Positions 1,707 through 20,565 of a stretch of DNA of 43,070 bases are shown here, piece after piece (the first letter of the stretch is position 1; each line of letters opens with the position of its first letter). The stretch comes from a virus. The notes under the pieces were generated by a model that did not search any database, had not been told where the DNA came from, and saw only the letters and a program-made list of their open reading frames with translations. A program made the position numbers and the translations under genes. Where the stretch lies: IMG/VR virus record IMGVR_UViG_3300045988_050530, positions 1-43,070 of that record; one strand, given 5' to 3'.

Positions 1707-1709
1707 AGC

Positions 1710-6051: not shown

Positions 6052-6059
6052 GAGGAAAC

Positions 6060-6242: not shown

Positions 6243-6471
6243 TGTAAACTGGGCGTTCGGCCCGACTGACGAATCTGGAAGTCTGATGATCGAACTCGCC
6301 GATAATCGTCTCCTGTCGGAAATCGCCGCCGACTTTGAAGAAAACGGCAAAATCGAAAAAACGGACGAGACAAAACCCGGTGTAACTGAAACCTATGAAG
6401 GATTTATCGAACTTGCAGCCATCCAGCGCAACAAAAACGGCAGCGTGCTTGTGAAGCTGGTAAAGGAGTGA
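6208..6471 (+). CDS. Hypothetical protein (tail module)
   Basis: ATG 6208 is preceded by AAGGAGG (6195-6201). I trimmed the longer track ORF (6100..6471) to this start. Confidence 0.55.
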   Translation: MKITTSKGKTLDVNWAFGPTDESGSLMIELADNRLLSEIAADFEENGKIEKTDETKPGVTETYEGFIELAAIQRNKNGSVLVKLVKE

Positions 6472-6477
6472 TGACCC

Positions 6478-7857: not shown

Positions 7858-7866
7858 GTGGGGATA

Positions 7867-8223
7867 ATGATGATTAAAATCAAGATAAACACCTCGGATG
7901 AAATCCGGGAAGTAACGTTTTCGCGACACAGTGAGCATGTTATTGAGCTTGGTGGTATCGCCGACGCTCCAACAACAGGCTTTACGACGTGGCGCATGGA
8001 CGGCGTGACCCAGCTCGGCGATTTCAGCGGCTACACGACCGTTTACCGCACCCTTGACAACGCGGTGCAGCTCTCCGACGACGGCAGCGTGTACGTCGAG
8101 CCGGAAGTGCCGGAACCGGGAGAACCGAAGCCGACGCAGGAAGAACGCATCAAGACGCTTGAAAACCAGAACGAAACCCTGCTGCAATGCATCCTCGAGA
8201 TGAGCGAGATTGTGTATGCTTAA
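7867..8223 (+). CDS. Hypothetical fibre-associated protein
   Basis: ORF immediately after the fibre gene. ATG 7867 was chosen over GTG 7858. The C-terminal helix (EERIKTLENQNETLLQCILEMSEIVYA) is typical of small post-fibre proteins. Confidence 0.55.
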   Translation: MMIKIKINTSDEIREVTFSRHSEHVIELGGIADAPTTGFTTWRMDGVTQLGDFSGYTTVYRTLDNAVQLSDDGSVYVEPEVPEPGEPKPTQEERIKTLENQNETLLQCILEMSEIVYA

Positions 8224-8266
8224 CATTTTTGGACGGCTCATTATAATGAGCAGAAAGGAAGAAGAT

Positions 8267-8398
8267 ATGATGGCTATGTTATGGGCACAGCAGATTATGC
8301 TTGGCAAGAAGACCTACGCGCAGGTTCCGCGCCTGCTCAAGGAGAAGGTCAGGGAAGTCCTGATTGACAGCGGTTGCGAAGACCTCGTGACGGAGTGA
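8267..8398 (+). CDS. Small XkdX-like post-fibre protein
   Basis: 43 aa (MMAMLWAQQIMLGKKTYAQVPRLLKEKVREVLIDSGCEDLVTE). This pattern is seen downstream of fibre genes in Firmicutes phages. The function call is weak. Confidence 0.45.
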   Translation: MMAMLWAQQIMLGKKTYAQVPRLLKEKVREVLIDSGCEDLVTE

Positions 8399-8447
8399 CA
8401 CAAGAGCGCTACATTGAACTTGAGTTAAACGAAGGGGAGAGAGCGTG

Positions 8448-9989
8448 ATGCGTGATATCATTCTGTCGCTTGACCGTTTTGGCGATCAAGCGCTTCTGCT
8501 TGGGCGCGTCGGCGAAAATCGCGCGACGCGGGTACTGATCGACATAAAAAGCATATTGAGCCAGTATCCGGATGCTATTGCGTCGATCACGGTCAAGCCG
8601 CCTGGCCGGGCGGAGTATCCGGCGGCGGTGAAGCAAGAGGACGGTATCCTGACGTGAGAGATCACGAGAGCGGACATCGGCAATAAAACCGGAAGCGGGC
8701 AAGCCCAAATCACAATCCAAGACGCGGATGGCACGATCATCAAGACCGCGATTGCCTGTACGCGCATCGGCGAGTCTCTTGGCAACGCAACTGCCCCAGC
8801 GCCTGATCCTGTTGAAACATGGATCGACAAAGCGACTGGCACACTGGCCGACGTTGAACGAGCGGGAAACGCCGCGCAAGCGGTCGCGGACGAAGTACAG
8901 CGGCGGTTGGACAACGGCGACTTTGTGGGGCCGCAAGGCCCGCAGGGCGAAAAGGGCGACCCCGGCGCGAAAGGCGAGAAGGGCGACCCGGGCGCACCGG
9001 GCGCGCAGGGCGAGAAGGGCGACCCGGGAAAAGACGCGCCGCAGGAAGTTGTGCTGTATACGGCGCAGACGCTTGATGATGCGCAAAAGGCGCAGGTAAG
9101 GGAGAACATCGGGGCGGCGGATGCAGCCCGGCAGAACATCCTTGTGGGCAGCGAGACGGGCAACCCGATTGCCGTTGATGATGCCTTTGCCGCTCCGCTG
9201 CGCGGTTTGACCGTGTACGGCAAGAGCACGCAGGACGGCACGCCCACACCGGATGCACCTGTTCCTATCGTGAGCGCTGGTGACGGCGGGAGCGTGGTGG
9301 TGACCTTGAGCGATGGGAACGGCAAAACGCAAACTCTCACCCTGCCCACCTCTAACGGCTTACCCGGTATTCCTGTCACCTCTGGCGGCAACTACACTGA
9401 CCCGCAGGGACAGCAGTGGGTGTGCGATGAGATTGACTTAGAGAGAGGAGTGAAGGTGCAGAGAATCGCAAGTTTCGTGATTAATGCTAAAAATGCAAAT
9501 GGTATTTCTGTGACGAACGTGTATACAAACGTTACTGCAGCCACAAGTGCGCGTTTAGCAACTCCACAAAAAACGAGCAAAGGTATGCGACTCGAAAAAT
9601 GCGTATTTTGCGAAGCGCTGCCATGGGCGCGTGATGTATGGGGTAGAATCATAAACTCGATAAATTATGTCGAAGATAATTCTGTCGATTTCATAATCGA
9701 AAACTCCTACTTAGGACTAAGCGAAGCAAGCACCGTGGATGAACGAAAAACTGCACTGGTTAAATACTTTACAGATAAACCTTGTCGAGTTGTATACAGG
9801 ATCGCCACCCCCATCGAAACCCCGCTCACCCCCGCCGAACTCGCCGCCTACAAAGCGCTGACTACCTACGCGCCCGACACCGTGGTGCAAGCGAGCGACG
9901 GCGCGGGGCTGAAACTGGACTATCAACGAGACGTCAACATTGTGATCAAAAATCTTGAGGACGCGATTGCGTCTATGACTGCGACCTAA
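8448..9989 (+). CDS. Collagen-like tail fibre / receptor-binding protein, single reading frame interrupted by one in-frame TGA at 8655-8657
   Basis: 8448-8654 and 8658-9989 are in the same frame. There is no ATG/GTG/TTG in the 249 nt after the TGA, yet the sequence looks coding. A GXY collagen run and a distal domain follow. Confidence 0.6.
8928..9029 (+). repeat. Collagen-like Gly-X-Y coding repeat (GPQGPQGEKGDPGAKGEKGDPGAPGAQGEKGDPG)
   Basis: Eleven consecutive GXY triplets with internal DNA repeats of GGCGAGAAGGGCGACCCGGG. Confidence 0.9.
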
Positions 9990-10003
9990 AGGAGGGAAAG
10001 CAT

Positions 10004-10234
10004 ATGGCTATCAAAAGCAAAGCCCGGCACGACCTGACCCTGCGCTCTATTAAGCGCGAGATCGCCGCCAGACGCGACGTGGCGTACTGGCTGGACAAGG
10101 CATACACCCATCTGGACAGCGGCCTGCTGACAGAGGACGACATCACGGAAATTGAAGCCCTTGCGCAGGCATATTATGATGCGCTGGACGCGGCAGAAAG
10201 GGAAGAAGCTGACGACGGCCTTTCAATCGTCTAA
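10004..10234 (+). CDS. Hypothetical acidic protein
   Basis: ATG preceded by AAAGGAGGG. 76 aa. Confidence 0.55.
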   Translation: MAIKSKARHDLTLRSIKREIAARRDVAYWLDKAYTHLDSGLLTEDDITEIEALAQAYYDALDAAEREEADDGLSIV

Positions 10235-10249
10235 GGGAGGTGGGTGTCA

Positions 10250-11032
10250 ATGATTCGGGCGAACGCGCTTATCGCGCTATTTAGGCGCATGCTGGACGAG
10301 CACTGGGCGTATGAGTGGGGCGCAGCGCGTGAGGGTTGCGTGGACTGCTCAGGGGCTTTTGTGTGGGCGTACAGACAGCTCGGCGCGAGCATCGAGCACG
10401 GCAGCAACTCCATTGCACATTTGCGCGTCGGTGAGTATGTGCCTGTGGCGAAGGCAAAACCGGGTTATGCGGTCTTTAAGTTGCGGGCGTGGCGAGACGA
10501 TAGCGACAACGGCGGCAACCGCTGGTTTGGCCAGCAGCCCGGCGATGTCTATCATATCGGTCTGATGGGCGACGACGGAAAAGTGCTCAACGCGCAGAGC
10601 ACAAAGACGGGCTTTGTCGCGTCGCCCGTGTCGCAAAATTGGTCGTTCGCCGCCCCGCTAAAGGCGGTCAGTTATTCAGATAACGATGAGGGAGGTGATA
10701 CTATGTTTGGCAACGCAACGGTCAAGACGCAAAGGGCGGGCAGTTACGTCAATCTGCGTGAGGGCGCTTCCACGCGAGCGGCTGTGATCGGCAAGGTCTA
10801 CGACGGCGAGCGTGTCAACGTGCTGCGCGAGGCAGGGACAGGCTGGATTTACGGCAAGACGCAGGCTGGCGCGGAAGGCTACATGTCGGCGGATTACATC
10901 GTCGAGGACGCGCCAGGCGCAGATGACGCGGAGGATGACGGCGGCGAAGAGACTGCCAGCACAACCACGCTGACCGACGGCAACGGCACATATGTGACGC
11001 TGGTCGGGCGGTGGAGGATTACAAAAGACTGA
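10250..11032 (+). CDS. Endolysin: NlpC/P60-type cysteine peptidase + SH3b cell-wall-binding domain
   Basis: Catalytic-type Cys in GCVDCSGAFVWAY and His in VYHIGLMGDDGKVLNA. SH3_3-like segment ATVKTQRAGSYVNLREGASTRAAVIGKVYDGERVNVL...GYMSADYI. ATG 10250 lies 9 nt after AGGGAGG. Confidence 0.85.
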   Translation: MIRANALIALFRRMLDEHWAYEWGAAREGCVDCSGAFVWAYRQLGASIEHGSNSIAHLRVGEYVPVAKAKPGYAVFKLRAWRDDSDNGGNRWFGQQPGDVYHIGLMGDDGKVLNAQSTKTGFVASPVSQNWSFAAPLKAVSYSDNDEGGDTMFGNATVKTQRAGSYVNLREGASTRAAVIGKVYDGERVNVLREAGTGWIYGKTQAGAEGYMSADYIVEDAPGADDAEDDGGEETASTTTLTDGNGTYVTLVGRWRITKD

Positions 11033-11056
11033 TGAGGTGACGGATAGGTGGACTTG

Positions 11057-11263
11057 ATGACATGGCTTCCGGCGGTTGCAAGCGCGGTCGGCAGCCTTGC
11101 AGGCGTGCTTGCATCCAATAAGCTGATGCAATATCGCATTCAACAGCTTGAGACTAAGGTCAACAAGCACAACAGTATCGTCGAGAGGACGTACAAGCTT
11201 GAGGGCGAGGTCAAAGAGCTTCAGCATGACATACGAGACTTAAAAGGAGATATCAAGGTATGA
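11057..11263 (+). CDS. Membrane-anchored coiled-coil protein of the lysis cassette (holin partner / XhlA-like, uncertain)
   Basis: N-terminal hydrophobic segment WLPAVASAVGSLAGVLA followed by a heptad-like helix. ATGA overlap with the holin gene. Confidence 0.5.
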   Translation: MTWLPAVASAVGSLAGVLASNKLMQYRIQQLETKVNKHNSIVERTYKLEGEVKELQHDIRDLKGDIKV

Positions 11264-11514
11264 GGATTAACTGGTTGGTACGCTTTCACAACAAGACGTT
11301 TCTGGCGTCGTTTCTGGCGCTGGTGATCGCGTTTGTTTATAATCTGCTGGCGCTGTTTGGCGTAACGCCGACGGTGCAGCAGGACGCGCTTTTGACTGCC
11401 GTCAACGCGATCCTGACGGTGCTGGGCATGATCGGCGTGATCGCCGACCCGACGACCAAGGGCATCAGCGACAGCGCGCAGGCGATGACCTACGACAAGC
11501 CCAAGGAGGGATAA
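11260..11514 (+). CDS. Holin (phi LC3-type)
   Basis: 84 aa. Hydrophobic segments FLASFLALVIAFVYNLLALF and AVNAILTVLGMIGVI. The N-terminal MRINWLVRFHNKTFL and the DPTTKGISDS motif resemble phi-LC3 family holins. It is adjacent to the lysin. Confidence 0.75.
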   Translation: MRINWLVRFHNKTFLASFLALVIAFVYNLLALFGVTPTVQQDALLTAVNAILTVLGMIGVIADPTTKGISDSAQAMTYDKPKEG

Positions 11515-11529
11515 GGGAGGCGGTTTCCC

Positions 11530-11757
11530 GTGCGCCTTGATTTTGACAGGCGCACGAAAGAAGAAATCGCCCGCCGCTGCGGCTTTGACGAGCACGTCCG
11601 GCTGGGTCAGGTCTTTGATTTGCTCTGGCGTGGTTACAGCATCGTGCAGATCAGCATGACGCTGGGCATGTCTCCGGCGACCGTCAGCCGTAGCATTCGC
11701 GAAATTAAAAGACGAATGTCTGCATCTATATATACGGATGATAATACCCCGGCCTGA
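11530..11757 (+). CDS. Small HTH protein (sigma-70 region-4 / LuxR-like helix-turn-helix)
   Basis: GTG start after AGGGAGG. HTH-like YSIVQISMTLGMSPATVSRSIREIKRRM. The stop codon sits in the loop of the terminator hairpin. Confidence 0.6.
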   Translation: MRLDFDRRTKEEIARRCGFDEHVRLGQVFDLLWRGYSIVQISMTLGMSPATVSRSIREIKRRMSASIYTDDNTPA

Positions 11758-11774
11758 TGGCTGGGGCTTTTTTT
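11747..11774 (+). terminator. Rho-independent terminator (copy 1 of duplicated cassette)
   Basis: CCCCGGCC-TGAT-GGCTGGGG hairpin followed by CTTTTTTT. Confidence 0.8.
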
Positions 11775-11810
11775 AATGCAAAAAATAAATAAAAATAATT
11801 TGAAAAACAC

Positions 11811-11839
11811 TTTACAAGTAAATTAAAATAATGTACAAT
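11811..11839 (+). promoter_or_regulatory. Sigma-70-type promoter (copy 1): -35 TTTACA, 17-nt spacer, extended -10 TGTACAAT
   Basis: Read directly. Preceded by an A/T-rich UP-like tract. Homologous to the 14299-14327 promoter. Confidence 0.65.
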
Positions 11840-11885
11840 ACAGACATAAAGAACAAGGAAAACAACCAGATCGGAGAAAACAAAA

Positions 11886-12101
11886 TTGAAGTACATCATT
11901 AGCTATGAGCGAAACGACGTCTACCAGTGCATTGGAATAAACGCCCAGACCACAGAGCAAGCCGCCGCTTACTTTTCCCAGTACAAGCCTAGCGCCCAGA
12001 TCCTTGGTATCAGTGAGCGCATGGAGGACAAGCCCGGACGCCCTGTTATCACGGTACCCGATGATTTTGGGGTAAGCCTGGAACCGCAAGCGCGATCTTG
12101 A
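11886..12101 (+). CDS. Hypothetical protein (moron cargo 1)
   Basis: The TTG start occupies exactly the position of the ATG in the duplicated leader (AAACAAAATTG vs AAACAAAATG). 71 aa. Confidence 0.5.
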   Translation: MKYIISYERNDVYQCIGINAQTTEQAAAYFSQYKPSAQILGISERMEDKPGRPVITVPDDFGVSLEPQARS

Positions 12102-12168
12102 GATCGGCTACATCGACAACATGACCGGCGCGCTCGTCGCTGCGTAAAAGCAGAAAGGAAGGAACAAC

Positions 12169-12618
12169 ATGACTATTATCGAAGCAAAGAAGCGCATTGA
12201 TGACGCCCTGATCCCTCTCAAGTATTCCCGCACCGTTTGCTGGGATTCCGACCTCGAGGATCGGCTTGTCAACCGTTACGCAGAAGAATACGCGGGCGGA
12301 ATGGATTTCGCATTAACGCCCGCCGCTCGAATGATGGGCGGATGGGGCAACCGTCCCGATGACGCAGATGATGATGAGCAATTCGCTATCATCGCGCGCA
12401 GAATCTTTGACACGCTAAACGAATCCGCCGTCAAGCACTGGCTGACGGCCATGCCACGCGATCACGCCGCCGCGATCTACGAAGAACTTGGATATTACGA
12501 GGGCACAATCACGTATTCTCATGTCGAGATGTGTGGCAGTTTGTTTCGCCACAGGTGGAACGGCTGCCACCCCGACGACGAAATCCCGGTCAATCCTGAT
12601 TTTTTGCCGAGTGTTTAA
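12169..12618 (+). CDS. Hypothetical protein
   Basis: ATG preceded by AAAGGAAGG. 149 aa, no recognisable motif. Confidence 0.6.
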   Translation: MTIIEAKKRIDDALIPLKYSRTVCWDSDLEDRLVNRYAEEYAGGMDFALTPAARMMGGWGNRPDDADDDEQFAIIARRIFDTLNESAVKHWLTAMPRDHAAAIYEELGYYEGTITYSHVEMCGSLFRHRWNGCHPDDEIPVNPDFLPSV

Positions 12619-12633
12619 GATGTAAGGAGGTAC

Positions 12634-13272
12634 ATGATGAGCAAATTTGTAGTCGAGATTAAGGATGATCAGGCATACTTGACAACGCCGTATAATCCGG
12701 TATATGTCCAGCGCATTAAGCAAATTGGTGCCAGATGGGATGCCTCTAGCAAACGCTGGCGCATCAATGCCCAGAGCGTCGATGTGGCACGCAAAATCAT
12801 GCGAGAGATTTACGGCGAGGACGATCAAGAGCAGAACGAGAAAGTTACGGTCATCGCCACTTTTGCTGCGGAACGGTCGGCCTTGTGTAGTGCTTACTGT
12901 CTACTTGGCAAGGTCATCGCTCGAGCATACGGCAGAGATTCAGGCGCTCAGGTTGGCCCTGACGCAGCTTTCGCCGCAGGAGCGCCTCAGAGCGGCGGAA
13001 GTGTTAAAAACTGGCGAACGGTCATTCCCGCTGGTAGCGTTGTCGAGATTTATAACGTCCCCTTACAATTCGCAGAACAGGAAATCAAGCGCAACAAATC
13101 GCAAGACGATAAAATCGAATTTGAGATTAAAAAAGGATCGTGCAAAATTGACCGCGAGGCGTTGGCGGCAGAACGAGAACGGCTTTTGCTTCGCATCTCT
13201 GAGATTGACCAAATATTGAAAAGCCAAAAAGAAAAATCGGGAGATTGCTCCCCCGATTTTCCTCTTGCCTAG
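12634..13272 (+). CDS. Hypothetical protein with small N-terminal ARWD..K.W domain (DUF5710-like) and C-terminal coiled coil
   Basis: TAAGGAGG RBS. N-terminus YLTTPYNPVYVQRIKQIGARWDASSKRWRI resembles the small domain found fused to plasmid primases/topoisomerases. Recognition from memory only. Confidence 0.6.
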   Translation: MMSKFVVEIKDDQAYLTTPYNPVYVQRIKQIGARWDASSKRWRINAQSVDVARKIMREIYGEDDQEQNEKVTVIATFAAERSALCSAYCLLGKVIARAYGRDSGAQVGPDAAFAAGAPQSGGSVKNWRTVIPAGSVVEIYNVPLQFAEQEIKRNKSQDDKIEFEIKKGSCKIDREALAAERERLLLRISEIDQILKSQKEKSGDCSPDFPLA

Positions 13273-13411
13273 TTGATTTTGCACTAGATAAGTCAACGTT
13301 TCAATCCACACGAGGCGTTGCCTCGTGGCCGTCTTCGGGGCGTCGCCTCCGAGACACCATTATTATAAGACGACTAATTACATTTGTCAAGAAACGGAAA
13401 GGGGAAAAAAC

Positions 13412-13906
13412 ATGAACATTAAACAGCTGCGCGTCTTGCGCGGATTGAAACAGAAGGAGCTGGCGGATAAGATGGGTATATCCGCCCAGCAGCTCAATAA
13501 TTACGAGGGTGGGCAGAGCAACCCCGGAAACAAGATTCTGCCTGCGCTGGCGGACGCGCTGGGCGTTTCGACCGCCTACCTTCGGGGCGACGCGCAGAGG
13601 CTGGCCGTCTATGATTGGGAGACTGGATGCACGCTGGCACTCCCAATCGTGTCCGAGACGGTGATCGACGATTACGGCATTTTCTACCTCGTCGAGCACC
13701 CGGAAATCGGAGTGATGGCGGTGATCCAGTCCGAGGGCGTGCAGTTTACCCTCGCGAGATGGCAGGATGATCCGCCGATGACTGTTGACAAGATCGCTAG
13801 TGCGCGCTGGGTAGATTCGCGTGGCGAAGACGCGATAATGTATAGGGGCTTGCCGCGCGTCCTCGTTGGCGGTGAGTTTGGCAGCAAGAGGGATCGGCTC
13901 GGTTAA
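13412..13906 (+). CDS. XRE-family HTH regulator with ~100-aa C-terminal domain of unknown function
   Basis: MNIKQLRVLRGLKQKELADKMGISAQQLNNYEGGQSNPGNKILPALADALGVSTAYLRG is a canonical Cro/C1-type HTH. I trimmed the track ORF to ATG 13412. Confidence 0.8.
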   Translation: MNIKQLRVLRGLKQKELADKMGISAQQLNNYEGGQSNPGNKILPALADALGVSTAYLRGDAQRLAVYDWETGCTLALPIVSETVIDDYGIFYLVEHPEIGVMAVIQSEGVQFTLARWQDDPPMTVDKIASARWVDSRGEDAIMYRGLPRVLVGGEFGSKRDRLG

Positions 13907-13951
13907 AATCAACAAAATATTAACCGACAAAAAAGGAAAGGAAGAAAAAAC

Positions 13952-14233
13952 ATGAAAATCCCAATTTACAAATCTTATGGTGTTCTGGCGCACGAATATC
14001 AGCCGGTTTATACGTGGGCATGCCCGCAGAGCGAAATCTATGATGAGATCATCGTGGAGGTACCGAACGTTGACGGCGAGAATTGCTACGGTCAGCCGCT
14101 CGTTAATTTTGGCGACGGGGTTGTTTATCCGCTCCCGATGGTGCTTGACAACTGGGGCGACGAGCCAGCGCTTATCTGGTATGATGGCGCGGTGCGACAC
14201 CACAAAATCTTGAAAGCGTATACAAAACTATAA
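13952..14233 (+). CDS. Hypothetical protein
   Basis: ATG preceded by AAAGGAAAGGAAG. 93 aa. Followed by a terminator. Confidence 0.6.
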   Translation: MKIPIYKSYGVLAHEYQPVYTWACPQSEIYDEIIVEVPNVDGENCYGQPLVNFGDGVVYPLPMVLDNWGDEPALIWYDGAVRHHKILKAYTKL

Positions 14234-14238
14234 GATAT

Positions 14239-14269
14239 CCCCGGCCTGATGGCCGGGGCTTCTTTTTTT
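14239..14269 (+). terminator. Rho-independent terminator (copy 2 of duplicated cassette)
   Basis: CCCCGGCC-TGAT-GGCCGGGG perfect hairpin followed by CTTCTTTTTTT. Confidence 0.85.
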
Positions 14270-14298
14270 GTAAAATAAAAAAATTATTTATAAATCGC

Positions 14299-14327
14299 TT
14301 GACAAGTAAATTAAAACAGTTTATAAT
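14299..14327 (+). promoter_or_regulatory. Sigma-70-type promoter (copy 2): -35 TTGACA, 17-nt spacer, -10 TATAAT
   Basis: Consensus hexamers read directly, with an A/T-rich tract upstream. Confidence 0.75.
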
Positions 14328-14370
14328 ATAGCCATAAGAACAAGGAAACAACGTGATCGGAGGAAACAAA

Positions 14371-14745
14371 ATGAAAAAGAGCGAAGAGTACAAAATTGCC
14401 GAACGCCGCCACAAGTTCCGCGACGCGATCCCGGGTCTCAAGGAGCTCGAGGCGGCGAGAGAAGAGTGGGCGGCCTACCGCGAAGCGTTTTCACGGGCTG
14501 TGCACAGCGGCGACGGCATCTATCCCGCAAAGCCCAAGAGCGATCCGGCGGAGCTGAGCGCACAATACCCGATGGCGGCCGCGATGCTCCGAGCAGAAAG
14601 CTACTCTCGAGCCGCCAACTACCGCAAGGCCAGCGCAGGCAGAAAAGCCGTCGAGCGCATCCTTGACGGCGAGGAATGGGAAAAGGCCGTCAGCGACATG
14701 GAGACTGAGTGGCACGAGGCGGCGCTCGAACACATGTGGGACTGA
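14371..14745 (+). CDS. Hypothetical protein (moron cargo 2)
   Basis: ATG 14371 lies 7 nt after GGAGGA. I trimmed the track ORF (GTG 14353). Bounded by its own promoter and terminator. Confidence 0.65.
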   Translation: MKKSEEYKIAERRHKFRDAIPGLKELEAAREEWAAYREAFSRAVHSGDGIYPAKPKSDPAELSAQYPMAAAMLRAESYSRAANYRKASAGRKAVERILDGEEWEKAVSDMETEWHEAALEHMWD

Positions 14746-14765
14746 CAAAAACCCGATATAAATCT

Positions 14766-14798
14766 GACGTGCATCTGATAGGTGCACGTCCTTTTTTT
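14766..14798 (+). terminator. Rho-independent terminator
   Basis: GACGTGCA-TCTGATAGG-TGCACGTC hairpin followed by CTTTTTTT. Confidence 0.8.
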
Positions 14799-14806
14799 AT
14801 GCCAAA

Positions 14807-15202
14807 ATGAAGGCAGAAGCAGGTGAGAGCGTGTTTGTTCCGTTTAATCCAAACCCTTTTCGATCTCGCGTCGGCGACTGTGCAATTAGAGCTGTAAGCA
14901 AGGCCACAGGCCAAACATGGGAAAGCGTCTTCATTGCGCTTTGCCTTGACGGCTTTTGCGCTGGGGATATGCCGAACGCAAATCACGTCTGGGGCGCGTA
15001 TCTTAGGCGCAAAGGCTTCAAGCGTCACAGCATCCCGGAGACGTGCCCGGACTGCTACACGGTTTCGGATTTCTGCCGAGACTTTCCGCGCGGCGTTTAT
15101 GTTTTGGCGACAAATGGACACGTTCTCGCGGTCGTGGACGGTGATTGGTATGACACATGGGACAGCGGCGGCGAAACGCCCCTTTACTACTGGGAGGGAT
15201 GA
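14807..15202 (+). CDS. Putative papain-fold cysteine peptidase-like protein
   Basis: N-terminal GDCAIRAVSKATG (candidate nucleophile Cys) and C-terminal TNGHVLAVVDGDWYDTWDSG (candidate His/Asp). Start uncertain: ATG 14807 or GTG 14831. Confidence 0.55.
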   Translation: MKAEAGESVFVPFNPNPFRSRVGDCAIRAVSKATGQTWESVFIALCLDGFCAGDMPNANHVWGAYLRRKGFKRHSIPETCPDCYTVSDFCRDFPRGVYVLATNGHVLAVVDGDWYDTWDSGGETPLYYWEG

Positions 15203-15205
15203 TTT

Positions 15206-15652
15206 ATGGCCTATCCGATTCAAGGTTGGCAGCAGCCATACGGCGGTTATTACCCACCTATGCAAGACCAACTCGCGCAGCTCAGATCACAACCATACAT
15301 GCCGCAGCAGCCAGCGCAGCAAGCGCCAGCTCAAAATAGCGGCGGAATCATCTGGGTGCAAGGCGAAGCGGCGGCGAAAAGCTACCCGGTCAGCCCCGGA
15401 AGCGGCGTTCTGCTGATGGACAGCGAATCTTTGACGTTTTATCTCAAATCTGCGGACGCAAGCGGTATGCCGTCTATGCGAATCTTTGACTACACCGAGA
15501 GGACAGCGTCGAGGCAAGCCGAGCCTTCCGTGCAATCAGCCGAGTATGTAACCCGCGACGACTTCAACGCGCTCGTGGCGCGTGTCGATGCGCTGACAAA
15601 AAAGCCGAACAGAAAAAAGGAGGATGCAACCGATGAGCAACCCGCTGTTTAA
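15206..15652 (+). CDS. Hypothetical protein with Gln/Pro/Tyr-rich N-terminus and conserved-looking core IIWVQGEAAAKSYPVSPGSGVLLMDSESLTFYLKSADASGMPSMRIFDY
   Basis: Starts 4 nt after the preceding stop. Low-complexity N-terminus followed by a compact domain. Confidence 0.65.
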   Translation: MAYPIQGWQQPYGGYYPPMQDQLAQLRSQPYMPQQPAQQAPAQNSGGIIWVQGEAAAKSYPVSPGSGVLLMDSESLTFYLKSADASGMPSMRIFDYTERTASRQAEPSVQSAEYVTRDDFNALVARVDALTKKPNRKKEDATDEQPAV

Positions 15653-15863
15653 TGCGATGCAGGGCATGTCTCGGAATCTTCCCGGACAGATGGGACAGTT
15701 TCAGCAGATGGCGCAGGAGTTCAAGCGGTTCAAATCTGAGTTTAGAGGCGATCCGCAGCAAGAGGTTCAGCGCCTACTCAACAGCGGCAAGATGACGCAG
15801 CAGCAGTTTAACCAGCTCTACGGCATCGCCCACCAGTTCCAAAGCCTTTTTGAAGGTCTCTAG
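15633..15863 (+). CDS. Hypothetical Gln/Met-rich small protein
   Basis: ATG 15633 lies 9 nt after AAAAGGAGG and overlaps the upstream gene end. 76 aa (MSNPLFNAMQGMSRNLPGQMGQFQQMAQEFKRF...). Confidence 0.6.
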   Translation: MSNPLFNAMQGMSRNLPGQMGQFQQMAQEFKRFKSEFRGDPQQEVQRLLNSGKMTQQQFNQLYGIAHQFQSLFEGL

Positions 15864-15915
15864 CGGCTAAATCCGTGCGCACGGTTAGCGATAAAAAACG
15901 AAAGGACGTGTGGAA

Positions 15916-16716
15916 ATGTCTTTGACTACTTCAGAAATGACCCCCGCCGATATCGCGGCGTTAACGGGCGGAAATCGCAATAACGGCGGCATGTTTGGAG
16001 ACGGGAATGGTGCATGGTGGATCATCGTTCTGTTCCTCTTCATGTTCTGCGGCTGGGGCGGCGGCTTCGGCAATAACGGCGCAAATTCTCCGGGCTTCCA
16101 AGGCTACGCGACCCGCGCAGACATCAATGAAGGCTTTGCCATCAACGGTATTGACAACGGCATCCGTGCCATCCAGAACGGGCTTTGTGACACCACCTAC
16201 GCCATCACCAACGCCGTCAATAGCGGTTTCAGCGCGGCGGAGCTTTCTCGCGCCAACCAGCAGGCGGCGCTCATGCAGCAGCTCTTTGCGATGCAGATGC
16301 AGCAGGCGAACTGCTGCTGCGAGACGCGCGAAGCGATTCAGGGTGTGAATTACAACCTCGCTACTCAGGCTTGCGACACGCGCAACCAGATGCAGCAGGG
16401 TTTCTGTGCCATCCAGAACACGCTTAACAATAACACCCGCGACGTGATCGACAATCAAAACGCCAACAGCCGCGCGATTCTCGACTTCCTGACGCAGGAC
16501 AAGATCGCCACGTTGCAGGCAGAAAACACCGATCTTCGCCGCGCCGCGTCGCAGGAGCGTCAGTCGGCGCTTCTGACCACGGAGATGGGGGCGCAGACTG
16601 CGCAGATCATCAACGCGCTGCGTCAGCCTGTCGCCATCCCTGCGTATCAGGTGCCGAACCCCTACACGGGCGGTTACGGTTATGGCTGTGCTGCTAACGC
16701 CGGTTGTGGCTGCTAA
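15916..16716 (+). CDS. Hypothetical membrane protein: Gly-rich N-terminus, one TM segment, Gln/Asn-rich helical body with Cys clusters
   Basis: WWIIVLFLFMFCGWGGGFG hydrophobic segment. A CCC triplet (QQANCCCETREA) and the C-terminal GYGYGCAANAGCGC. Confidence 0.65.
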   Translation: MSLTTSEMTPADIAALTGGNRNNGGMFGDGNGAWWIIVLFLFMFCGWGGGFGNNGANSPGFQGYATRADINEGFAINGIDNGIRAIQNGLCDTTYAITNAVNSGFSAAELSRANQQAALMQQLFAMQMQQANCCCETREAIQGVNYNLATQACDTRNQMQQGFCAIQNTLNNNTRDVIDNQNANSRAILDFLTQDKIATLQAENTDLRRAASQERQSALLTTEMGAQTAQIINALRQPVAIPAYQVPNPYTGGYGYGCAANAGCGC

Positions 16717-16830
16717 AATCGCATAAGAGATGCAACTGTTCGGCGTGACCGAGCTGTTCAGCCCTGAGCTGATTCTGCAACGACGGCGGGGCGAATGTGT
16801 CCCGCCGTTTCTTATGAAAGGAGATAATCT

Positions 16831-17253
16831 ATGGCTGAGTATACCAACGCCAGCACGGCGCTTGTCGCGGCTGGCCAAAATCTGGCATTGACCGAAACGC
16901 CGATTGGCGGCTCTCCGTGCATCGTCCATCGAGAGGGCGCGGGAATCGTAACGCTTCGCGGCCTGACGAACCAGTGCCGAGCGCGGTACTTTGTGGACTT
17001 CGTCGGGAACATTGCCATTCCGACGGGCGGAACGGTTGAAGCGATCTCCGTTGCGCTGACGATAAACGGCGAGACGCTGAATAGCGCCGTCGCTATCGTC
17101 ACCCCTGCGGCGGTCGAGAACTATTTTAATGTTTCCGTCTCTGCGTTTGTCGATGTGCCGCGTGGATGCTGCGTAACCGTCGCGCTGAAAAACACCAGTG
17201 CGCAAGCGATTGACGTTGCCAACGCAAACCTGATCGTCACGCGGCAGGCGTGA
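16831..17253 (+). CDS. Small all-beta protein with C1q/TNF-like (BclA C-terminal-domain-like) sequence pattern
   Basis: GAAAGGAG RBS. Alternating beta pattern ...GIVTLRGLTNQCRARYFVDFVGNIAIP...ISVALTINGETLNSA...VTVALKNTSAQAIDVANANLIVTRQA, as in exosporium BclA-type jelly-roll domains. Recognition by eye only. Confidence 0.6.
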   Translation: MAEYTNASTALVAAGQNLALTETPIGGSPCIVHREGAGIVTLRGLTNQCRARYFVDFVGNIAIPTGGTVEAISVALTINGETLNSAVAIVTPAAVENYFNVSVSAFVDVPRGCCVTVALKNTSAQAIDVANANLIVTRQA

Positions 17254-17267
17254 GAAAGGAGAAAAGT

Positions 17268-17636
17268 ATGAGCATGAAAGCAATGCGCGACTTGCGCGAT
17301 ATGCTTTGCGATGAGCTGGACAAAATCGCCGCCAAGCGTGACATGAACCCAGGCGACCTCGAAACTGTCCACAAACTGACCGACACCATCAAAAATATTG
17401 ATAAAATCGAAATCCTTGAGGACGAAGGGTACAGCAACAGCGCGGAGTGGCGCGCTGACGTGCGCGGAAGCTATGGACGCAACGACCGGCGCGGCGAGCA
17501 TTACGTGCGCGGGCATTACAGCAGCGACGACGGGCGAGAAAGCATGATGCGCAAGATGGAAGAGATCATGCGCGACGCGACCGGCGAACAGCGCGAAATC
17601 ATCCGCCGCGCGATGGACGAGCTGCGCAACGCCTGA
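17268..17636 (+). CDS. Hypothetical charged protein
   Basis: ATG 17268 lies 7 nt after GAAAGGAG. 122 aa, Arg/Asp/Glu-rich. Confidence 0.65.
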   Translation: MSMKAMRDLRDMLCDELDKIAAKRDMNPGDLETVHKLTDTIKNIDKIEILEDEGYSNSAEWRADVRGSYGRNDRRGEHYVRGHYSSDDGRESMMRKMEEIMRDATGEQREIIRRAMDELRNA

Positions 17637-17652
17637 CGGGCGGTGAGCGGCA

Positions 17653-17973
17653 TTGATCGACCTGAAAGAGATCGACGAAACCATCACCAAGATCAAGCGC
17701 GAAGGGACGAGCGTGAAAGACGCTGAACGCCTGGCGGTGCTATACGGTCTTCGGGCGCACATGGCAAGCGAATCCGTGCAGGATGTGAGGGAAGCGCCCG
17801 TTTCGGCGTACTTGATGGCAGCAGAGCCGGAAAGCGAGTTCCGCGCTGCGTGTGCAGGCTTGTCATCTGCTGAGCTTGTCGATGCGTTGGAAGACACGAT
17901 TCAGGGATTGCAGATCGTTGCGCCGAAGGCATACGCGGCAGCAATCCGGAAACTGAAAGCATCTCGAAACTAG
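17653..17973 (+). CDS. Hypothetical protein (last gene before attP)
   Basis: TTG start. 106 aa, and the only long ORF here. Confidence 0.5.
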   Translation: MIDLKEIDETITKIKREGTSVKDAERLAVLYGLRAHMASESVQDVREAPVSAYLMAAEPESEFRAACAGLSSAELVDALEDTIQGLQIVAPKAYAAAIRKLKASRN

Positions 17974-17980
17974 CTGTTTT

Positions 17981-18010
17981 TGACACGATTTCACACGAAA
18001 TTTCACACGA
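17981..18010 (+). repeat. Candidate integrase arm-type sites, left arm: TGACACGA / ATTTCACACGA / ATTTCACACGA at 12-bp spacing
   Basis: Direct reading. The same 11-mer pair recurs at 18197-18219, on the other side of the tRNA-derived core. Confidence 0.6.
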
Positions 18011-18044
18011 AGAACAAAAAAGCTAGTAAATACAACAGGAATAA

Positions 18045-18072
18045 ATGGGTTCAAGTCCCATCTACCGCACCA
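18045..18072 (+). other. attP core: 3' fragment of a tRNA gene (T-arm ATGGG-TTCAAGT-CCCAT, acceptor 3' strand CTACCGC, discriminator A, CCA)
   Basis: Canonical T-arm/acceptor/CCA read directly. No complementary 5' acceptor strand (GCGGTAG), D-arm or anticodon arm upstream. Integrase gene 140 nt away. Confidence 0.75.
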
Positions 18073-18077
18073 AACAG

Positions 18078-18117
18078 GAAATCCAGAGGCCACAAAGGTT
18101 TCTGGATTTTTTCTTTT
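18078..18117 (+). terminator. Rho-independent terminator directly after the tRNA fragment
   Basis: GAAATCCAGA ... TCTGGATTT stem followed by a T-run (TTTTTTCTTTT). Confidence 0.75.
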
Positions 18118-18196
18118 GCCTTCTATTTTATTCAGTGTAAATTATTACTCATTTCGTGTATCGTCATTCCTTTCCTGTGTGAACTTTTGCAAAATC

Positions 18197-18219
18197 ATTT
18201 CACACGGAATTTCACACGG
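18197..18219 (+). repeat. Candidate integrase arm-type sites, right arm: ATTTCACACGG A ATTTCACACGG
   Basis: Direct reading. Overlaps the 3' end of int. An inverted partial copy (CTGTGTGAAC) lies at about 18172-18181. Confidence 0.6.
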
Positions 18220-19327
18220 GCTTTTTGATGGATTCGTAGAGCGCCGCCGTTCCTGCGGCCAGCTCGGCGTTTACGGATTCCTGCCGTTCGTGGAAAAGCT
18301 CGACGTACACCTGATGGGAGAAAGCGGACGTTGAATGACCCATGACGCGGGCAAGCTCTTCTTCGGACGCGCCGGAGTAGGCGACGGACGTTGCAAAAAA
18401 ATGACGCAGATCGTAAAAGCGCATCTTTCCGGGAAGCCCAAGCGCCGCCCTGCATTTTTTCCAGCGGTAGTCAACGAGGTTAGGCTTTAGCGTCAGTATT
18501 TGGGCGTGGTCAGCGCCTCGTGGCTTGCAGTCGTACAAGTTTTGGAAAAAAGACCAGTCGAGACGAAGCGCGCGTTCTCCTGCATCTGTCTTTGTGACGT
18601 TTTTTCTGACGTATGAGCGGGATTCATCGCGCACTGTGGCCTTGTCGATGCTTAAAAGCCCCATTTTGTACGCTTTCCCGTCTCTGCTGATTGCGGAAAC
18701 AGGTTCAGCGGACAGATCGCCCCACGTCAAAGCATACGCCTCAGAAGGGCGCAAGCCCGCGCTCACAATGAAGCAACAATAAAGATAGAAATCCGTTTCC
18801 CAATGCTCTTTGGCGTAGGTCAGCACGTCTCGCGCCCAGCCTTCGGAGAAAAGCTGCTTCTTCGACTTCTTCCTTTTGGCTATGACAATCCCGGACAAAT
18901 TCAAATCAGGCGCATATTTGCCCAAAACAGAGCGCAGAAAGTAAAACTCATTCCGAACCGTTTTCACAGCATGATCTTTAGCCCTTGCGTCAATTGCTTT
19001 TTGGATATCCCGCTCTGTGATTTGATCCAGGCGTAAAGAGACAAGCATCGGAAAGCTGTTTTCCCGTATCGAGACATACGCCGGAATCGTGGACGGCGAA
19101 TAGCCCTGTACACGGCAAGTATCTATAAACTCGTCCATTGCCTGACCGAGCGTCAGCGTTTGCTTCTTCTTCCGCTTGCGATCGGCAGCAGCGACGGCGG
19201 CAAGGCGCTCAGATTCACGGGCGGTCGATGCGGTAAAGGATTCAACGATTGGCTTTCCCGTTGCATCCTTACCGAGGTAAACCTGTGTTCGCCAGTTGCC
19301 GGACGGCAGCTTTTTTGCTTTTGCCAT
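18212..19327 (-). CDS. int: Tyrosine integrase
   Basis: Tyrosine-recombinase motifs: GLRPSEAYAL (Arg), YDLRHFFAT (box II), MGHSTSAFSHQVYVELF (His ... catalytic Tyr). Adjacent to attP. Confidence 0.95.
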   Translation of the reverse strand: MAKAKKLPSGNWRTQVYLGKDATGKPIVESFTASTARESERLAAVAAADRKRKKKQTLTLGQAMDEFIDTCRVQGYSPSTIPAYVSIRENSFPMLVSLRLDQITERDIQKAIDARAKDHAVKTVRNEFYFLRSVLGKYAPDLNLSGIVIAKRKKSKKQLFSEGWARDVLTYAKEHWETDFYLYCCFIVSAGLRPSEAYALTWGDLSAEPVSAISRDGKAYKMGLLSIDKATVRDESRSYVRKNVTKTDAGERALRLDWSFFQNLYDCKPRGADHAQILTLKPNLVDYRWKKCRAALGLPGKMRFYDLRHFFATSVAYSGASEEELARVMGHSTSAFSHQVYVELFHERQESVNAELAAGTAALYESIKKPV

Positions 19328-19409
19328 AAAAAATCCCCCTTTTGATAATTATTTGATAGTATATTCTTCAAAAATCGGCATATGATAAAAAAAGAAAGGC
19401 GGTGAACAC

Positions 19410-19697
19410 ATGAAAGATGTGAATCGAATGTTTGCGTTGCGTCTCCCGGAGGTCATGCTTGAGGAAAACGAAATGCACGCGGATGAAAACACAATCGTGC
19501 TTGCAATCGTAGAGAATCTGCGAGCTTGCTTGAAGGGACTCCCGGAAGAACTTACCCACGAGCAAAAGAAGATGGCTTTTAACAGAGCGATCGAATGCTT
19601 TAAGGCAGAGAACTGTTTCGGCAATTCGTTGTCTCTTGAGGATTACGGCATCGCATTCACGCACCCACCGGTACCATATTGCCCCACGAAAGGCTAA
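19410..19697 (+). CDS. Hypothetical protein
   Basis: 95-aa ORF divergent from int and followed by a hairpin. No recognisable motif. Confidence 0.5.
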   Translation: MKDVNRMFALRLPEVMLEENEMHADENTIVLAIVENLRACLKGLPEELTHEQKKMAFNRAIECFKAENCFGNSLSLEDYGIAFTHPPVPYCPTKG

Positions 19698-19701
19698 AAC
19701 G

Positions 19702-19734
19702 AAAAGACGCGCCCATCAGGACGCGCCTTTTTTT
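19702..19734. terminator. Probable bidirectional terminator between convergent genes
   Basis: A-tract, imperfect GC stem (GACGCGCCC / GGACGCGCC around the tetraloop ATCA) and T7 tract. Two mismatches in the stem. Confidence 0.5.
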
Positions 19735-19800
19735 GTCGCTCAGCGCGACCTGATGTTTTGTCGGCATCGGCAAAACATCGCTTGTTTTCATTTCAAGCGA

Positions 19801-20565
19801 TTACTTGCGGATTTTTTCATAATATTCGAGCGACAGGCCGTCGCGGATGATCGGGTTGATACCGAAAGAGACGGCGATCCCCGGTAGCATATCGGAAGAA
19901 AAATTTTCCCAATTCACCTTTGCGGCCTCGCTGGCCTTGACGCGAATATCGACAGCGTGACCGTCGCTCTCGTTTCCGTACTTATCTATATATGTCGTCC
20001 ATCCGATGACAAGCAGAGAACCGTATTTGATCTTTCCTTCCTTCGCCGCTTCCGACATATATCGGTTCATTTTTGCCGCTCTGGAAAGAAACGCGCTTAC
20101 GCGGGAATCATTCTTCGTTCCGTCTGGAAATTCGACGTTCACTGTAACCATCGGCGCGGTTTCTCCGTCAACCTGTTCGCACGTCACGGATATCAGCGTT
20201 GAAATGCCGCTGTCAACGGGGAAGAACACACGCTCCGCGACGGATTCTGCCCATCCTTGCAAGGTATCAGGCTCAGGCGTTGCTGTCGGTTTCGGCGTAT
20301 TTGTTGGCTTTGGTGTGTTTGTCGGCTTCGGCGTTTTTGTCGGCTTTGGCGTTTTCGTCGGCTTCGGCGTTTTTGTTGGCGCTGGGGTTTTCTCTTCGCC
20401 GGTCGTCTGTTCAACTTGCGCATTCGATTCATCCTGCGCTGCTGTGTCTTCACTACTGCGCTTGTTTACTGTACCGATGAACGCCAAAATGACGATTGCA
20501 ACGCAAAAATAGGAAAATGCTTTGAAAATGCGGGACAAGCACCCCGGTTTTCCGTCTCTAGCCAA
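19801..20565 (-). CDS. Membrane-anchored surface protein with (K/N)TPKPT repeat linker; superinfection-exclusion candidate
   Basis: N-terminal TM FSYFCVAIVILAFIG, a PT-rich tandem linker and a ~150-aa C-terminal domain. Lies between int and the repressor, on the lysogeny strand. Confidence 0.7.
   Translation of the reverse strand: MARDGKPGCLSRIFKAFSYFCVAIVILAFIGTVNKRSSEDTAAQDESNAQVEQTTGEEKTPAPTKTPKPTKTPKPTKTPKPTNTPKPTNTPKPTATPEPDTLQGWAESVAERVFFPVDSGISTLISVTCEQVDGETAPMVTVNVEFPDGTKNDSRVSAFLSRAAKMNRYMSEAAKEGKIKYGSLLVIGWTTYIDKYGNESDGHAVDIRVKASEAAKVNWENFSSDMLPGIAVSFGINPIIRDGLSLEYYEKIRK
20285..20392 (-). repeat. 18-bp tandem repeat x6 encoding TPKPTK/TPKPTN linker
   Basis: Units GTCGGCTTCGGCGTTTTT / GTCGGCTTTGGCGTTTTC and variants, read on the + strand. 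Confidence 0.9.

Follow-up and report, generated by a model that had tools for sequence, protein, structure and literature searches.

Among described systems, those closest to the locus reported here are the BclA, ExsFA (BxpB) and F-BclA proteins of the exosporium nap and appendage tips in the Bacillus cereus group; the viral shaft-and-knob fibres, such as PRD1 P5, the adenovirus fibre, reovirus sigma1 and phage tail-fibre tips; the spanins (lambda Rz/Rz1); small papain-like peptidases (Josephin, Tae4, C39); and the attenuators and antitermination RNAs. The TNF/C1q fold is found in BclA and in TNF ligands, and a number of phage fibre or spike proteins use it as well. Here we analyze the IMG/VR virus record IMGVR_UViG_3300045988_050530, positions 1 to 43,070, a stretch of 43,070 nucleotides (nt) that we call the window, and within it a cassette of seven + strand open reading frames (ORFs), P1 to P7, which were confirmed between an intrinsic terminator and the attP region. 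The window is the genome of a temperate siphovirus in a circular or excised arrangement. We suggest that the cassette is a self-contained accessory module, moving horizontally among gut tailed phages, that makes a lytic-cycle assembly at the host envelope; we put the probability of this reading at roughly 35%.

Organization and recurrence of the cassette

The cassette contains the following features, with lengths of proteins in amino acids (aa):

14807-15202, + strand: P1, papain-like topology, putative cysteine peptidase
15206-15652, + strand: P2, Q/P/Y-rich N-terminus, beta-rich core and C-terminal helix
15633-15863, + strand: P3, Q/M-rich, helical, 76 aa; the ORF opens at 15624
15910-16716, + strand: P4, the hallmark protein; likely start ATG 15916
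16722-16831, + strand: three-hairpin RNA in the P4-P5 spacer
16831-17253, + strand: P5, stand-alone TNF/C1q-type jelly-roll, 140 aa
17250-17636, + strand: P6, N-terminal helical domain, low-complexity linker and C-terminal helix
17653-17973, + strand: P7, small, helical, clade-restricted and fast-evolving

The original prediction, made from the sequence of the window, described seven tightly coupled genes running from a terminator to attP. It placed the ORFs correctly, as it did the terminator 5' of them and the junction of attP and integrase, and the compositions it gave (P2 rich in Q, P and Y, P3 in Q and M, P4 Cys-rich with a CCC motif, P5 all-beta) hold. Start codons were corrected for three genes (P1, P3 and P4). 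Tight coupling applies to most junctions, with 3 nt between P1 and P2, an overlap of P2 and P3, a 4-nt overlap of P5 and P6, and 16 nt between P6 and P7, but not to P4 and P5, which are separated by a 114-nt spacer carrying a conserved structured RNA.

The order P1-P2-(P3)-P4-P5-P6-(P7) recurs across about 100 loci. Using the seven proteins as tblastn queries, the full order P1-P6(-P7) was found in 8 of 11 loci from bacterial metagenome-assembled genomes (MAGs), plus two annotated lemur-gut phages. Another 79 loci were retrieved from IMG/VR with P4 as the query; P1 and P2 are present in 78 of them, P5 in 76 and P6 in 74, in constant order. Since the same gene order recurs in the IMG/VR and the genome loci, the arrangement is far beyond chance, and the seven genes do travel together, as had been proposed for a neighbourhood check. 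In the more distant clade P3 and P7 were missed by BLAST because they are short and fast-evolving. The flanks are far less conserved than the cassette: across the IMG/VR loci P5 keeps an identity of 65-98%, but the lysin is at about 41% or missing altogether. The core of the cassette is P2-P3-P4-P5-P6, with a small peptidase (here P1) and P7 at the edges.

None of the cassette proteins could be named by homology. Searches with P1-P7 against Pfam (E<=1), NCBIfam and PADLOC gave nothing above noise, and the only PADLOC match, of P3 (as a 79-aa protein) to Csn2 with an E-value of 0.004, is at chance level. P1 to P6 each match a PHROGs family of unassigned function and are, for this reason, known unknowns; P7 has no PHROGs or Pfam family match. 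The PHROGs search of the cassette proteins returned no structural and no lysis family, the PDB sequence and profile searches with P1, P2, P4, P5 and P5' (an alternative occupant of the P5 slot, described below) returned chance matches only, and no further match came from a Pfam scan of each sequence aligned for P1 or P2. Members of the cassette families have no Pfam domain and are named only as hypothetical proteins. The earlier statement that nothing here resembles virion, replication or lysis functions is thus borne out by the absence of family matches, which extends to defence families. By hydropathy analysis P4 alone among the seven has a strongly hydrophobic segment, and no signal peptide or lipobox was found at the N-terminus of any cassette protein (sequences and hydropathy).

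The genomic position of the cassette varies. In the window, Dulem virus 33 (locus L001), the integrated prophage L019 and the Vescimonas fastidiosa MM35 prophage, it follows the holin and lysin genes and is att-proximal. In Dulem virus 35 it lies inside the head module, between a MuF-like gene and the major capsid gene; in L014 and L022 it is 3' of capsid and connector genes, and in L023 directly 3' of xis-int. The Bacteroides phage C3_41T2LP has a cassette variant in its recombination region. In Butyrivibrio virus Ceridwen the order P1-P2-P3-P4-P5-[HNH]-P6 follows the lysin; this phage has neither integrase nor excisionase and only a lytic cycle has been seen (PMC7372960). A constant position beside attP is therefore not supported. 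Homing-endonuclease-like insertions interrupt the cassette in two of these genomes: between P3 and P4 in Dulem virus 33 (L001, 9960-10511, minus strand) and between P5 and P6 in Ceridwen (L105, 12929-13723).

The MAGs and isolates with the full cassette are Clostridia, which we take to be monoderm, and it is right that similar unannotated sets exist in very many Clostridia phages and prophages. Butyrivibrio fibrisolvens, the host of Ceridwen, is not known to form spores. The Vescimonas fastidiosa MM35 prophage contains P2-P7; the type species of Vescimonas is non-spore-forming, which agrees with what genomes predict for the genus, and Vescimonas coprocola stains Gram-negative (PMC11334427).

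Clear P4 homologues were also found in Bacteroides phages, namely the crAss-like cr53_1 and the cultured C3_41T2LP. In cr53_1 and C3_41T2LP, the gene after P4 encodes a beta-rich protein of 146-180 aa that contains Cys, and an R/D/Y-rich charged protein is nearby. A small HExxH peptidase comes next in C3_41T2LP, and the cr53_1 block is 3' of a holin and a LysB-like gene. Profile hidden Markov models of P1 and P5 found no match among the neighbours of cr53_1 gp66. As P4 is the only gene demonstrably shared, the analogy of the crAss-like neighbours with cassette genes is one of size and composition. Under translation table 11 the annotated genes of cr53_1 (L018) contain many in-frame stop codons. 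Stop-codon reassignment is known in some crAss-like phages, and the stops of cr53_1 fit it; for P4 and the neighbour gp65 of this phage, the in-frame stop was read as Gln.

A further context was observed in L014-L017, where an element of about 19 kb (about 1244-20313) is bounded by RtcB and an integrase. It encodes a terminase, an SPP1-type portal, MuF, a scaffold, a major capsid protein, one connector and a cassette variant, as well as a reverse transcriptase of the diversity-generating retroelement type and two large proteins, of which one contains DUF6273. No tail tube or tape-measure gene could be recognised in it. The element could represent a phage with a short tail, or else a satellite able to form capsids.

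P4 and the interchangeable P5 slot

P4 (phrog_16490, E 7.8e-67) begins with an acidic motif, ADIAA.TG, followed by a Gly-flanked hydrophobic core, WWIIVLFLFMFC, of about 13 residues with nearly uncharged flanks. Then come an N/Q-rich region of about 170 aa, which is probably helical judging from its sequence, an invariant CCC, and the motifs ASQ and P.PAY.VPNP. The tail is Y/G-rich and ends in GCGC (C-terminal GCAANAGCGC), and the protein has 10 Cys in total. Homologues form more than 8000 clusters at 90% identity, and an exhaustive scan at E<=1e-3 gave 1,669 clusters at 50% identity; the clusters are nearly all from gut and rumen metagenomes and none is annotated. The homologues in Bacteroides and crAss-like phages keep every one of these landmarks and end in GCGCGC.

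P5 (phrog_20016) was modelled by AlphaFold2 (AF2) with a mean predicted local distance difference test score (pLDDT) of 89.5, and has conserved cysteines at C30, C49 and C113-C114. Foldseek matched the model to the C-terminal domain (CTD) of F-BclA (E 8e-7, TM-score 0.70-0.73), to ExsFA/BxpB (TM-score 0.73-0.78) and to the BclA CTD (TM-score 0.74-0.76), and also to TNF ligands, with a probability of 1.0 against 9h38, 7r1m, 8d02, 1wck and the TNF ligands; the cyanophage A4 portal-tail complex and the phi812 central spike are among the matches. By predicted structure and Foldseek, then, the BclA-type domain suggested earlier is present as a TNF/C1q fold. The likeness does not extend to sequence families: P5 has no match to BclA_C in Pfam at E<=1, its PDB sequence and profile searches are empty, and neither GXY collagen-like repeats nor an exosporium leader could be found in its sequence and alignment. 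DUF3992 and DUF4183, the family definitions of the Ena and F-ENA subunits, respectively (PMC12357932), have no Pfam match (E<=1) in P5, in the other window proteins or in P5'. Among the cassette proteins P5 is the best conserved; there are at least 7937 homologues at 90% identity, and the best 120 clusters share 71-96% identity with it.

The slot of P5 is open to replacement. The loci L011 and L012 have almost identical P4 tails, yet L011 carries P5 while L012 carries P5', a Cys-rich beta protein. Profile-profile comparison of P5 and P5' gave a probability of 1% and no relationship, and we treat the two as a probable non-homologous displacement. Bacteroides phages have a third knob type in the same slot.

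A structured RNA between P4 and P5

Three hairpins occupy the P4-P5 spacer:

about 16737-16754, + strand: hairpin 1
about 16758-16775, + strand: hairpin 2
16782-16808, + strand: hairpin 3, a GC-rich stem resembling a terminator, with a TTTCTTAT tail; the P5 ribosome-binding site AAAGGAG comes next

The spacer folds with a z-score of -2.95, and in an RNAalifold analysis of 16 diverse loci compensatory changes were found in 15 of 21 pairs. Of the cells, 90.1% are paired; the shuffles gave 71.6% and the slid controls 40-47%, and not one of 500 shuffles attained the observed value on any measure. The stem sequences of hairpin 1 are wholly different between related loci while the layout is kept. 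A covariance model built on the motif gave 88 matches in 99 loci, one per locus and always directly 3' of P4 (79.6 bits in the window), with no further copies elsewhere in the window or the loci. No Rfam match falls in 16717-16830 in a cmscan of 13000-19500 (E<=1). Where a different gene fills the P5 slot, the P4-P5 junction of the variant likewise contains a strong hairpin with a U-tract. In Ceridwen the gap between P4 and P5 measures just 12 nt.

Because a covarying RNA with a terminator separates P4 from P5, the cassette is bipartite, consisting of P1-P4 and P5-P7. Both halves sit behind terminators and have no recognisable promoter. The spacer RNA is a candidate for a new cis-regulatory motif: it could act as an attenuator, or it could fix the proportion in which the two halves are made.

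In part of a clade at 57% identity, an extra ORF of about 70 aa (MTVAELKQQF...) was observed between the spacer terminator and P5 (L054, L063, L064, L071, L074, L076, L078 and L102-L104, about 10770-10990).

P1 and the peptidase slot

The likely true start of P1 (phrog_3754, E 1.6e-28), judging from the homologue alignment, is GTG 14831. An alignment of 31 sequences shows D24-C25, H105, D116 and the pair C80-x-x-C83 (a CPDC motif) to be invariant, and D111 and D119 nearly so. In the AF2 model (pLDDT 92.8), Cys25 opens a helix (25-34) and His105 opens a strand (105-110). The best Foldseek matches in the PDB are all papain-fold enzymes, although weak, with TM-scores of 0.33-0.41 and E-values of at least 0.1: Josephin-2 (E 0.1, TM-score 0.41), Tae4 (E 0.33) and the C39 domain of ComA (E 1.2). 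There are 22 matches in BFVD, all uncharacterised phage proteins, and a Josephin-domain viral protein was matched with an E-value of 0.03. The topology and the invariant Cys and His agree with the papain-like fold that the original prediction had assigned to P1, and the model follows the clan CA pattern, with a conserved Cys at a helix start, a His on a strand and a third polar residue, as expected for a putative cysteine peptidase. The family comprises 2570 clusters at 90% identity and has no Pfam match even with 31 members scanned. Homologues stand alone in Tsamsa- and Kirov-like Bacillus phages, Geobacillus phage GBK2 and Lak megaphages, and some of those in Bacillus phages are annotated as putative peptidase.

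Cassette variants without P1 are closed by a small HExxH protein of 105-154 aa; this metallopeptidase is in the slot in L014, L022, L023 and C3_41T2LP. Since an HExxH protein can fill it, the slot is more probably proteolytic than a place for a transglutaminase. A Q-rich protein beside a papain-fold enzyme recalls GerQ and Tgl, and we considered P1 as a transglutaminase that cross-links the Q-rich P2 and P3 in the manner of Tgl/GerQ; the alternation with a metallopeptidase disfavours it. Cleavage of the P4 N-terminus (ADIAALTGG) as a double-glycine leader by a C39-like P1 is likewise unsupported: the leader motif is often TGN, SGA or TGS, occurs with either peptidase type, and is absent in L008 despite the presence of P1.

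The low-complexity proteins and P7

P2 (phrog_21718, E 5.7e-34) has 12 Q, 8 P and 5 Y within residues 1-45, and the alignment reveals a conserved core, IWVQGE..AK.Y.V....V.L.DS....Y.KS.D..G.PS; no match was found in the PDB or Pfam. P3 (phrog_22984, E 2.3e-20) contains 20% Q and 9% M, and its start was placed at ATG 15633 because the spacing of a GGAGG Shine-Dalgarno sequence fits that ATG; homologues occupy the same slot in other loci. P6 (phrog_28802, E 7e-10) has an R/G/Y/S/D-rich linker whose length varies in the alignment. P7 was found 3' of P6 in L005, L007, L010-L012 and L019-L021 and in 41 of the 79 IMG/VR loci, while the corresponding slot of Ceridwen holds an ORF of 108 aa with no tblastn match to P7.

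Flanking regions in the window and in related phages

The features outside the cassette that bear on its expression and boundaries, or on the type of phage, are the following:

1710-3506, + strand: tape-measure gene
8907-9989, + strand: collagen-like tail fibre gene, upstream of the endolysin
10244-11032, + strand: NlpC/P60-SH3 endolysin
13412-13906: XRE-type helix-turn-helix (HTH) gene
14239-14258: terminator ahead of the 124-aa gene
14299-14327: sigma-70 promoter, perfect TTGACA-17-TATAAT, driving the 124-aa gene
14371-14745: 124-aa helical gene, ending at an intrinsic terminator
14766-14799, + strand: intrinsic terminator upstream of P1, an 11-bp stem (14766-14790) with a 3-nt loop, then CTTTTTTTAT
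17974-18211: attP region, at the cassette boundary and outside the cassette
18212-19327, - strand: integrase

The + strand also encodes Dit and Tal homologues plus tail fibres. The tail fibre gene at 8907-9989 matches the Pfam Collagen family (E 5e-6) and several PHROGs tail-fibre families, and its collagen-repeat product is a fibre system distinct from the seven-gene cassette.

The first ORF of the cassette opens 17 nt past the terminator, and the ORFs extend to 17973. Because this terminator adjoins P1, there is no room for a sigma-70 promoter before P1, and between the 14766-14790 terminator and the start codon we found no convincing sporulation-sigma or sigma-70 promoter. The related phages L019 and L021 likewise have a terminator immediately 5' of P1. 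Relative to L019, L020 has an insertion immediately 5' of P1 (L020 6823-7747) that comprises an HTH gene and a 135-aa gene, both on the minus strand; identity between the two loci returns about 80 nt ahead of the P1 start codon, and the left boundary of the module is thereby marked.

The segment 14239-14799 has the anatomy of a textbook moron: terminator, promoter, 124-aa gene and second terminator. The product of the 124-aa gene (14371-14745) has no family match, and the gene is present in 18 of the 79 IMG/VR loci, in the close clade only. Rfam matches to MicC and SurA in this segment are weak, far under the gathering scores, and overlie the terminator and promoter.

On the other side, attP holds a tRNA 3' end (T-arm, acceptor and CCA) at 18045-18072. 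Two tandem pairs of the octamer TTCACACG flank it, at 17990 and 18002 and at 18199 and 18211, so that 4 of the 5 copies in the window fall in the attP region; they are probably arm-type integrase sites. The last copy (18211) overlaps the 3' end of the integrase gene, and the attP anatomy spans 17974-18219.

Just 5' of the cassette, unrelated phages repeatedly encode two proteins, one of them small (73-86 aa) and sigma-70 region-4-like, the other a membrane protein. In L002, L014 and L022 the latter is XhlA-like and tail-anchored. The upstream slot of Ceridwen (L105) is filled by a hydrophobic protein of 64 aa together with a 73-aa protein, counterparts by eye with no BLAST match. The pair may represent a dedicated regulator and a lysis-associated partner. 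The window itself has neither a sigma-70 region-4-like nor an XhlA-like protein.

Proposed role and alternative explanations

In the reading that we prefer, P4 would be held in or on the host cytoplasmic membrane through its Gly-flanked hydrophobic segment and would oligomerise into a long helical stalk, stapled by the CCC and C-terminal GCGC cysteines. An interchangeable beta-sandwich protein, P5 here and one of two unrelated Cys-rich beta families elsewhere, would cap or partner the stalk, the low-complexity P2, P3 and P6 may serve as chaperones or matrix, and the small peptidase, whether P1 or the HExxH metallopeptidase, may mature a component. Transcription would depend on read-through of terminators during the lytic cycle, with the P4-P5 RNA and its terminator setting the ratio of the halves, and the assembly would act late in infection at the host envelope, in lysis, egress or the handling of cell debris, and not on spores. 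The cassette is always co-oriented with late genes, and holin/endolysin genes are often directly 5' (the window, L001, L019, Ceridwen, Vescimonas and cr53_1); together with the XhlA-like companions, this position suggests a place at the envelope and a part in lysis or egress. That the assembly is on or in the envelope, as originally suggested, is plausible. We would propose only tentatively, as something that could well turn out otherwise, the wider picture of an undescribed mobile module of Firmicutes and Bacteroidota gut phages, with a Cys-stapled stalk, an interchangeable knob, its own peptidase and a ratio-controlling RNA, located on infected-cell membranes or virions; such a fibre would be the phages' own equivalent of the BclA and endospore-appendage fibres.

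Several points weigh against our preferred reading. The adjacency to lysis genes may just reflect the usual hot-spot for accessory insertions at the end of the late operon, and in some genomes the cassette is in early or recombination regions. The contact between stalk and knob is conjecture, and the C-terminal tail of P4 shows no co-variation with the knob type. Membrane insertion and orientation of P4 are uncertain, given a core of about 13 residues and nearly uncharged flanks. P1, moreover, may not act on the cassette proteins, since its homologues occur alone elsewhere.

The same proteins could instead form a virion-associated shaft-and-knob fibre or decoration on capsids or tails, built from P4 plus P5 or an alternative knob; the hydrophobic segment of P4 would then be membrane-active or virion-docking, P2, P3 and P6 chaperones, and P1 a maturation protease. 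The lack of an export signal in all proteins except P4 fits cytoplasmic assembly, in which the Met/Gln-rich P3 could shield the hydrophobic segment, and Dulem virus 35 has the cassette within a morphogenesis module, L022 downstream of its connector gene. Phage fibre and spike proteins are among the Foldseek matches of P5, besides BclA, and depositors annotated the crAss-like P4 homologues as spike or fibre. However, the virion architectures of the carriers are unrelated, including siphoviruses with a tape-measure protein, crAss-like phages and a 74-kb Bacteroides phage, and the docking partner would therefore need to be universal. P5 is unusually conserved for a receptor-binding tip, no PHROGs structural family is matched, and a place in the recombination region (C3_41T2LP) or after xis-int (L023) is not what a virion component would suggest. 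We regard a virion fibre as a serious competitor, though somewhat less probable than the envelope assembly. An expression from the prophage at the cell envelope, for lysogenic conversion or superinfection exclusion, would suit the att-proximal end, a classic moron site, that the cassette occupies in the window and many prophages, and a perfect sigma-70 promoter does lie 480 nt upstream (14299-14327); yet a strong terminator stands between this promoter and P1 and no promoter follows it, the full cassette is carried by the integrase-less lytic Ceridwen and P4-centred versions by crAss-like phages, other phages have it within structural operons (Dulem virus 35, L022), and PADLOC gave no match above chance level. 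This makes such a role unlikely.

A cytoplasmic scaffold or condensate, in which P4 tethers prion-like P2, P3 and P6 to the membrane and their phase separation there organises late infection (e.g. assembly or packaging sites), would account for the low-complexity proteins and the variable length of the RGY linker, for the lack of a strongly hydrophobic segment for export or anchoring in P1-P3 and P5-P7, and for the independence of the module from virion type and host envelope type. It is a purely compositional argument, though, that leaves the conserved Cys motifs, the swappable beta-sandwich slot and the peptidase unexplained, and we hold it to be quite unlikely. The original prediction also raised, for a spore-forming host, a spore-surface or exosporium-like morphogenetic assembly of Cys-rich proteins and a BclA-type domain. 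The closest structures to P5 are indeed the Bacillus exosporium and appendage proteins F-BclA, ExsFA/BxpB and BclA, and the Cys-rich and Q/Y/G-rich compositions without signal peptides are coat-protein-like. The hosts, however, extend beyond spore formers, with the full cassette in a Butyrivibrio fibrisolvens phage, P2-P7 in the Vescimonas fastidiosa prophage and P4-centred versions in Bacteroides phages. In addition, Pfam gave no match to BclA_C, DUF3992, DUF4183 or any coat family, P5 is devoid of collagen-like repeats and of the exosporium leader, and a metallopeptidase in the P1 slot argues for proteolysis, not transglutamination, so we regard an assembly on host spores as very improbable. 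Least probable of all is the absence of any system, with a run of small hypothetical ORFs or morons that are unrelated and adjoin by chance. P7 and the upstream 124-aa gene are clade-specific and P1 also occurs alone in other phages, as such a run would have it, but P1, P2, P4, P5 and P6 keep their order in 74-78 of the 79 IMG/VR loci across unrelated flanks, each family has thousands of homologues, and a covarying RNA is found at a fixed internal position. Synteny already refutes this explanation.

Comparison with known systems

Full-text literature searches for the cassette or its carrier phages found no description of it as a system, although P1-P6 are already in PHROGs. It is widespread, keeps its order, and crosses unrelated phages and host phyla, and must therefore serve an important general role for phages. 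If its product is indeed a fibre held by cross-links, or an apparatus at the envelope or for egress, it would be a new functional class in phage biology, and thousands of gut virome proteins now called hypothetical would receive names. The cultured entry points are Ceridwen on B. fibrisolvens DSM 3071, the Vescimonas fastidiosa MM35 prophage and the Bacteroides phage C3_41T2LP.

The cassette lacks the defining properties of BclA/Ena systems, spanins, morons, defence systems and Rfam RNAs. As regards morons, P1 has no promoter of its own, and the cassette is not confined to temperate phages or att-proximal sites. P1 shares with the small papain-like peptidases (Josephin, Tae4, C39) a Cys at a helix start, a His on a strand and a conserved Asp, but differs from them in the low structural scores (TM-score 0.33-0.41, E of at least 0.1), in having no Pfam match, and in belonging to a large uncharacterised phage family. 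The spacer RNA is like attenuators and antitermination RNAs in having two hairpins followed by an intrinsic terminator inside an operon, with position and covariation kept, while differing from them in its lack of an Rfam match and of any sign of alternative antiterminator pairing. The processive-antitermination RNAs HK022 put and the Bacillus eps-associated RNA (EAR) resemble it.

P4 recalls the i-spanin Rz in having an N-terminal hydrophobic segment, at best a putative transmembrane domain given its core of about 13 aa and its uncharged Gly-rich flanks, a probably helical region and conserved cysteines, and the cassette is often directly 3' of the holin and endolysin. In contrast to spanins, it has no lipoprotein partner and no PHROGs lysis match, most of its hosts are monoderm Clostridia, and it adds five cytoplasmic low-complexity proteins and a peptidase. 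With the BclA, ExsFA (BxpB) and F-BclA proteins, P5 shares the TNF/C1q jelly-roll (TM-score 0.70-0.78), and both sets are rich in cysteine and low complexity and assemble, in the case of the cassette presumably, without signal peptides. P5 has no BclA_C, DUF3992 or DUF4183 match, collagen-like stalk or exosporium leader, and the cassette instead is phage-borne and is found in hosts that do not sporulate. The viral shaft-and-knob fibres are approached by a putative helical shaft, P4, beside a TNF-like P5, and by a tip that can be swapped. In the cassette, however, the two parts are encoded separately and a terminator RNA stands between their genes, the shaft begins with a hydrophobic Gly-flanked segment instead of a virion-attachment domain, and the module is independent of the virion type that carries it.

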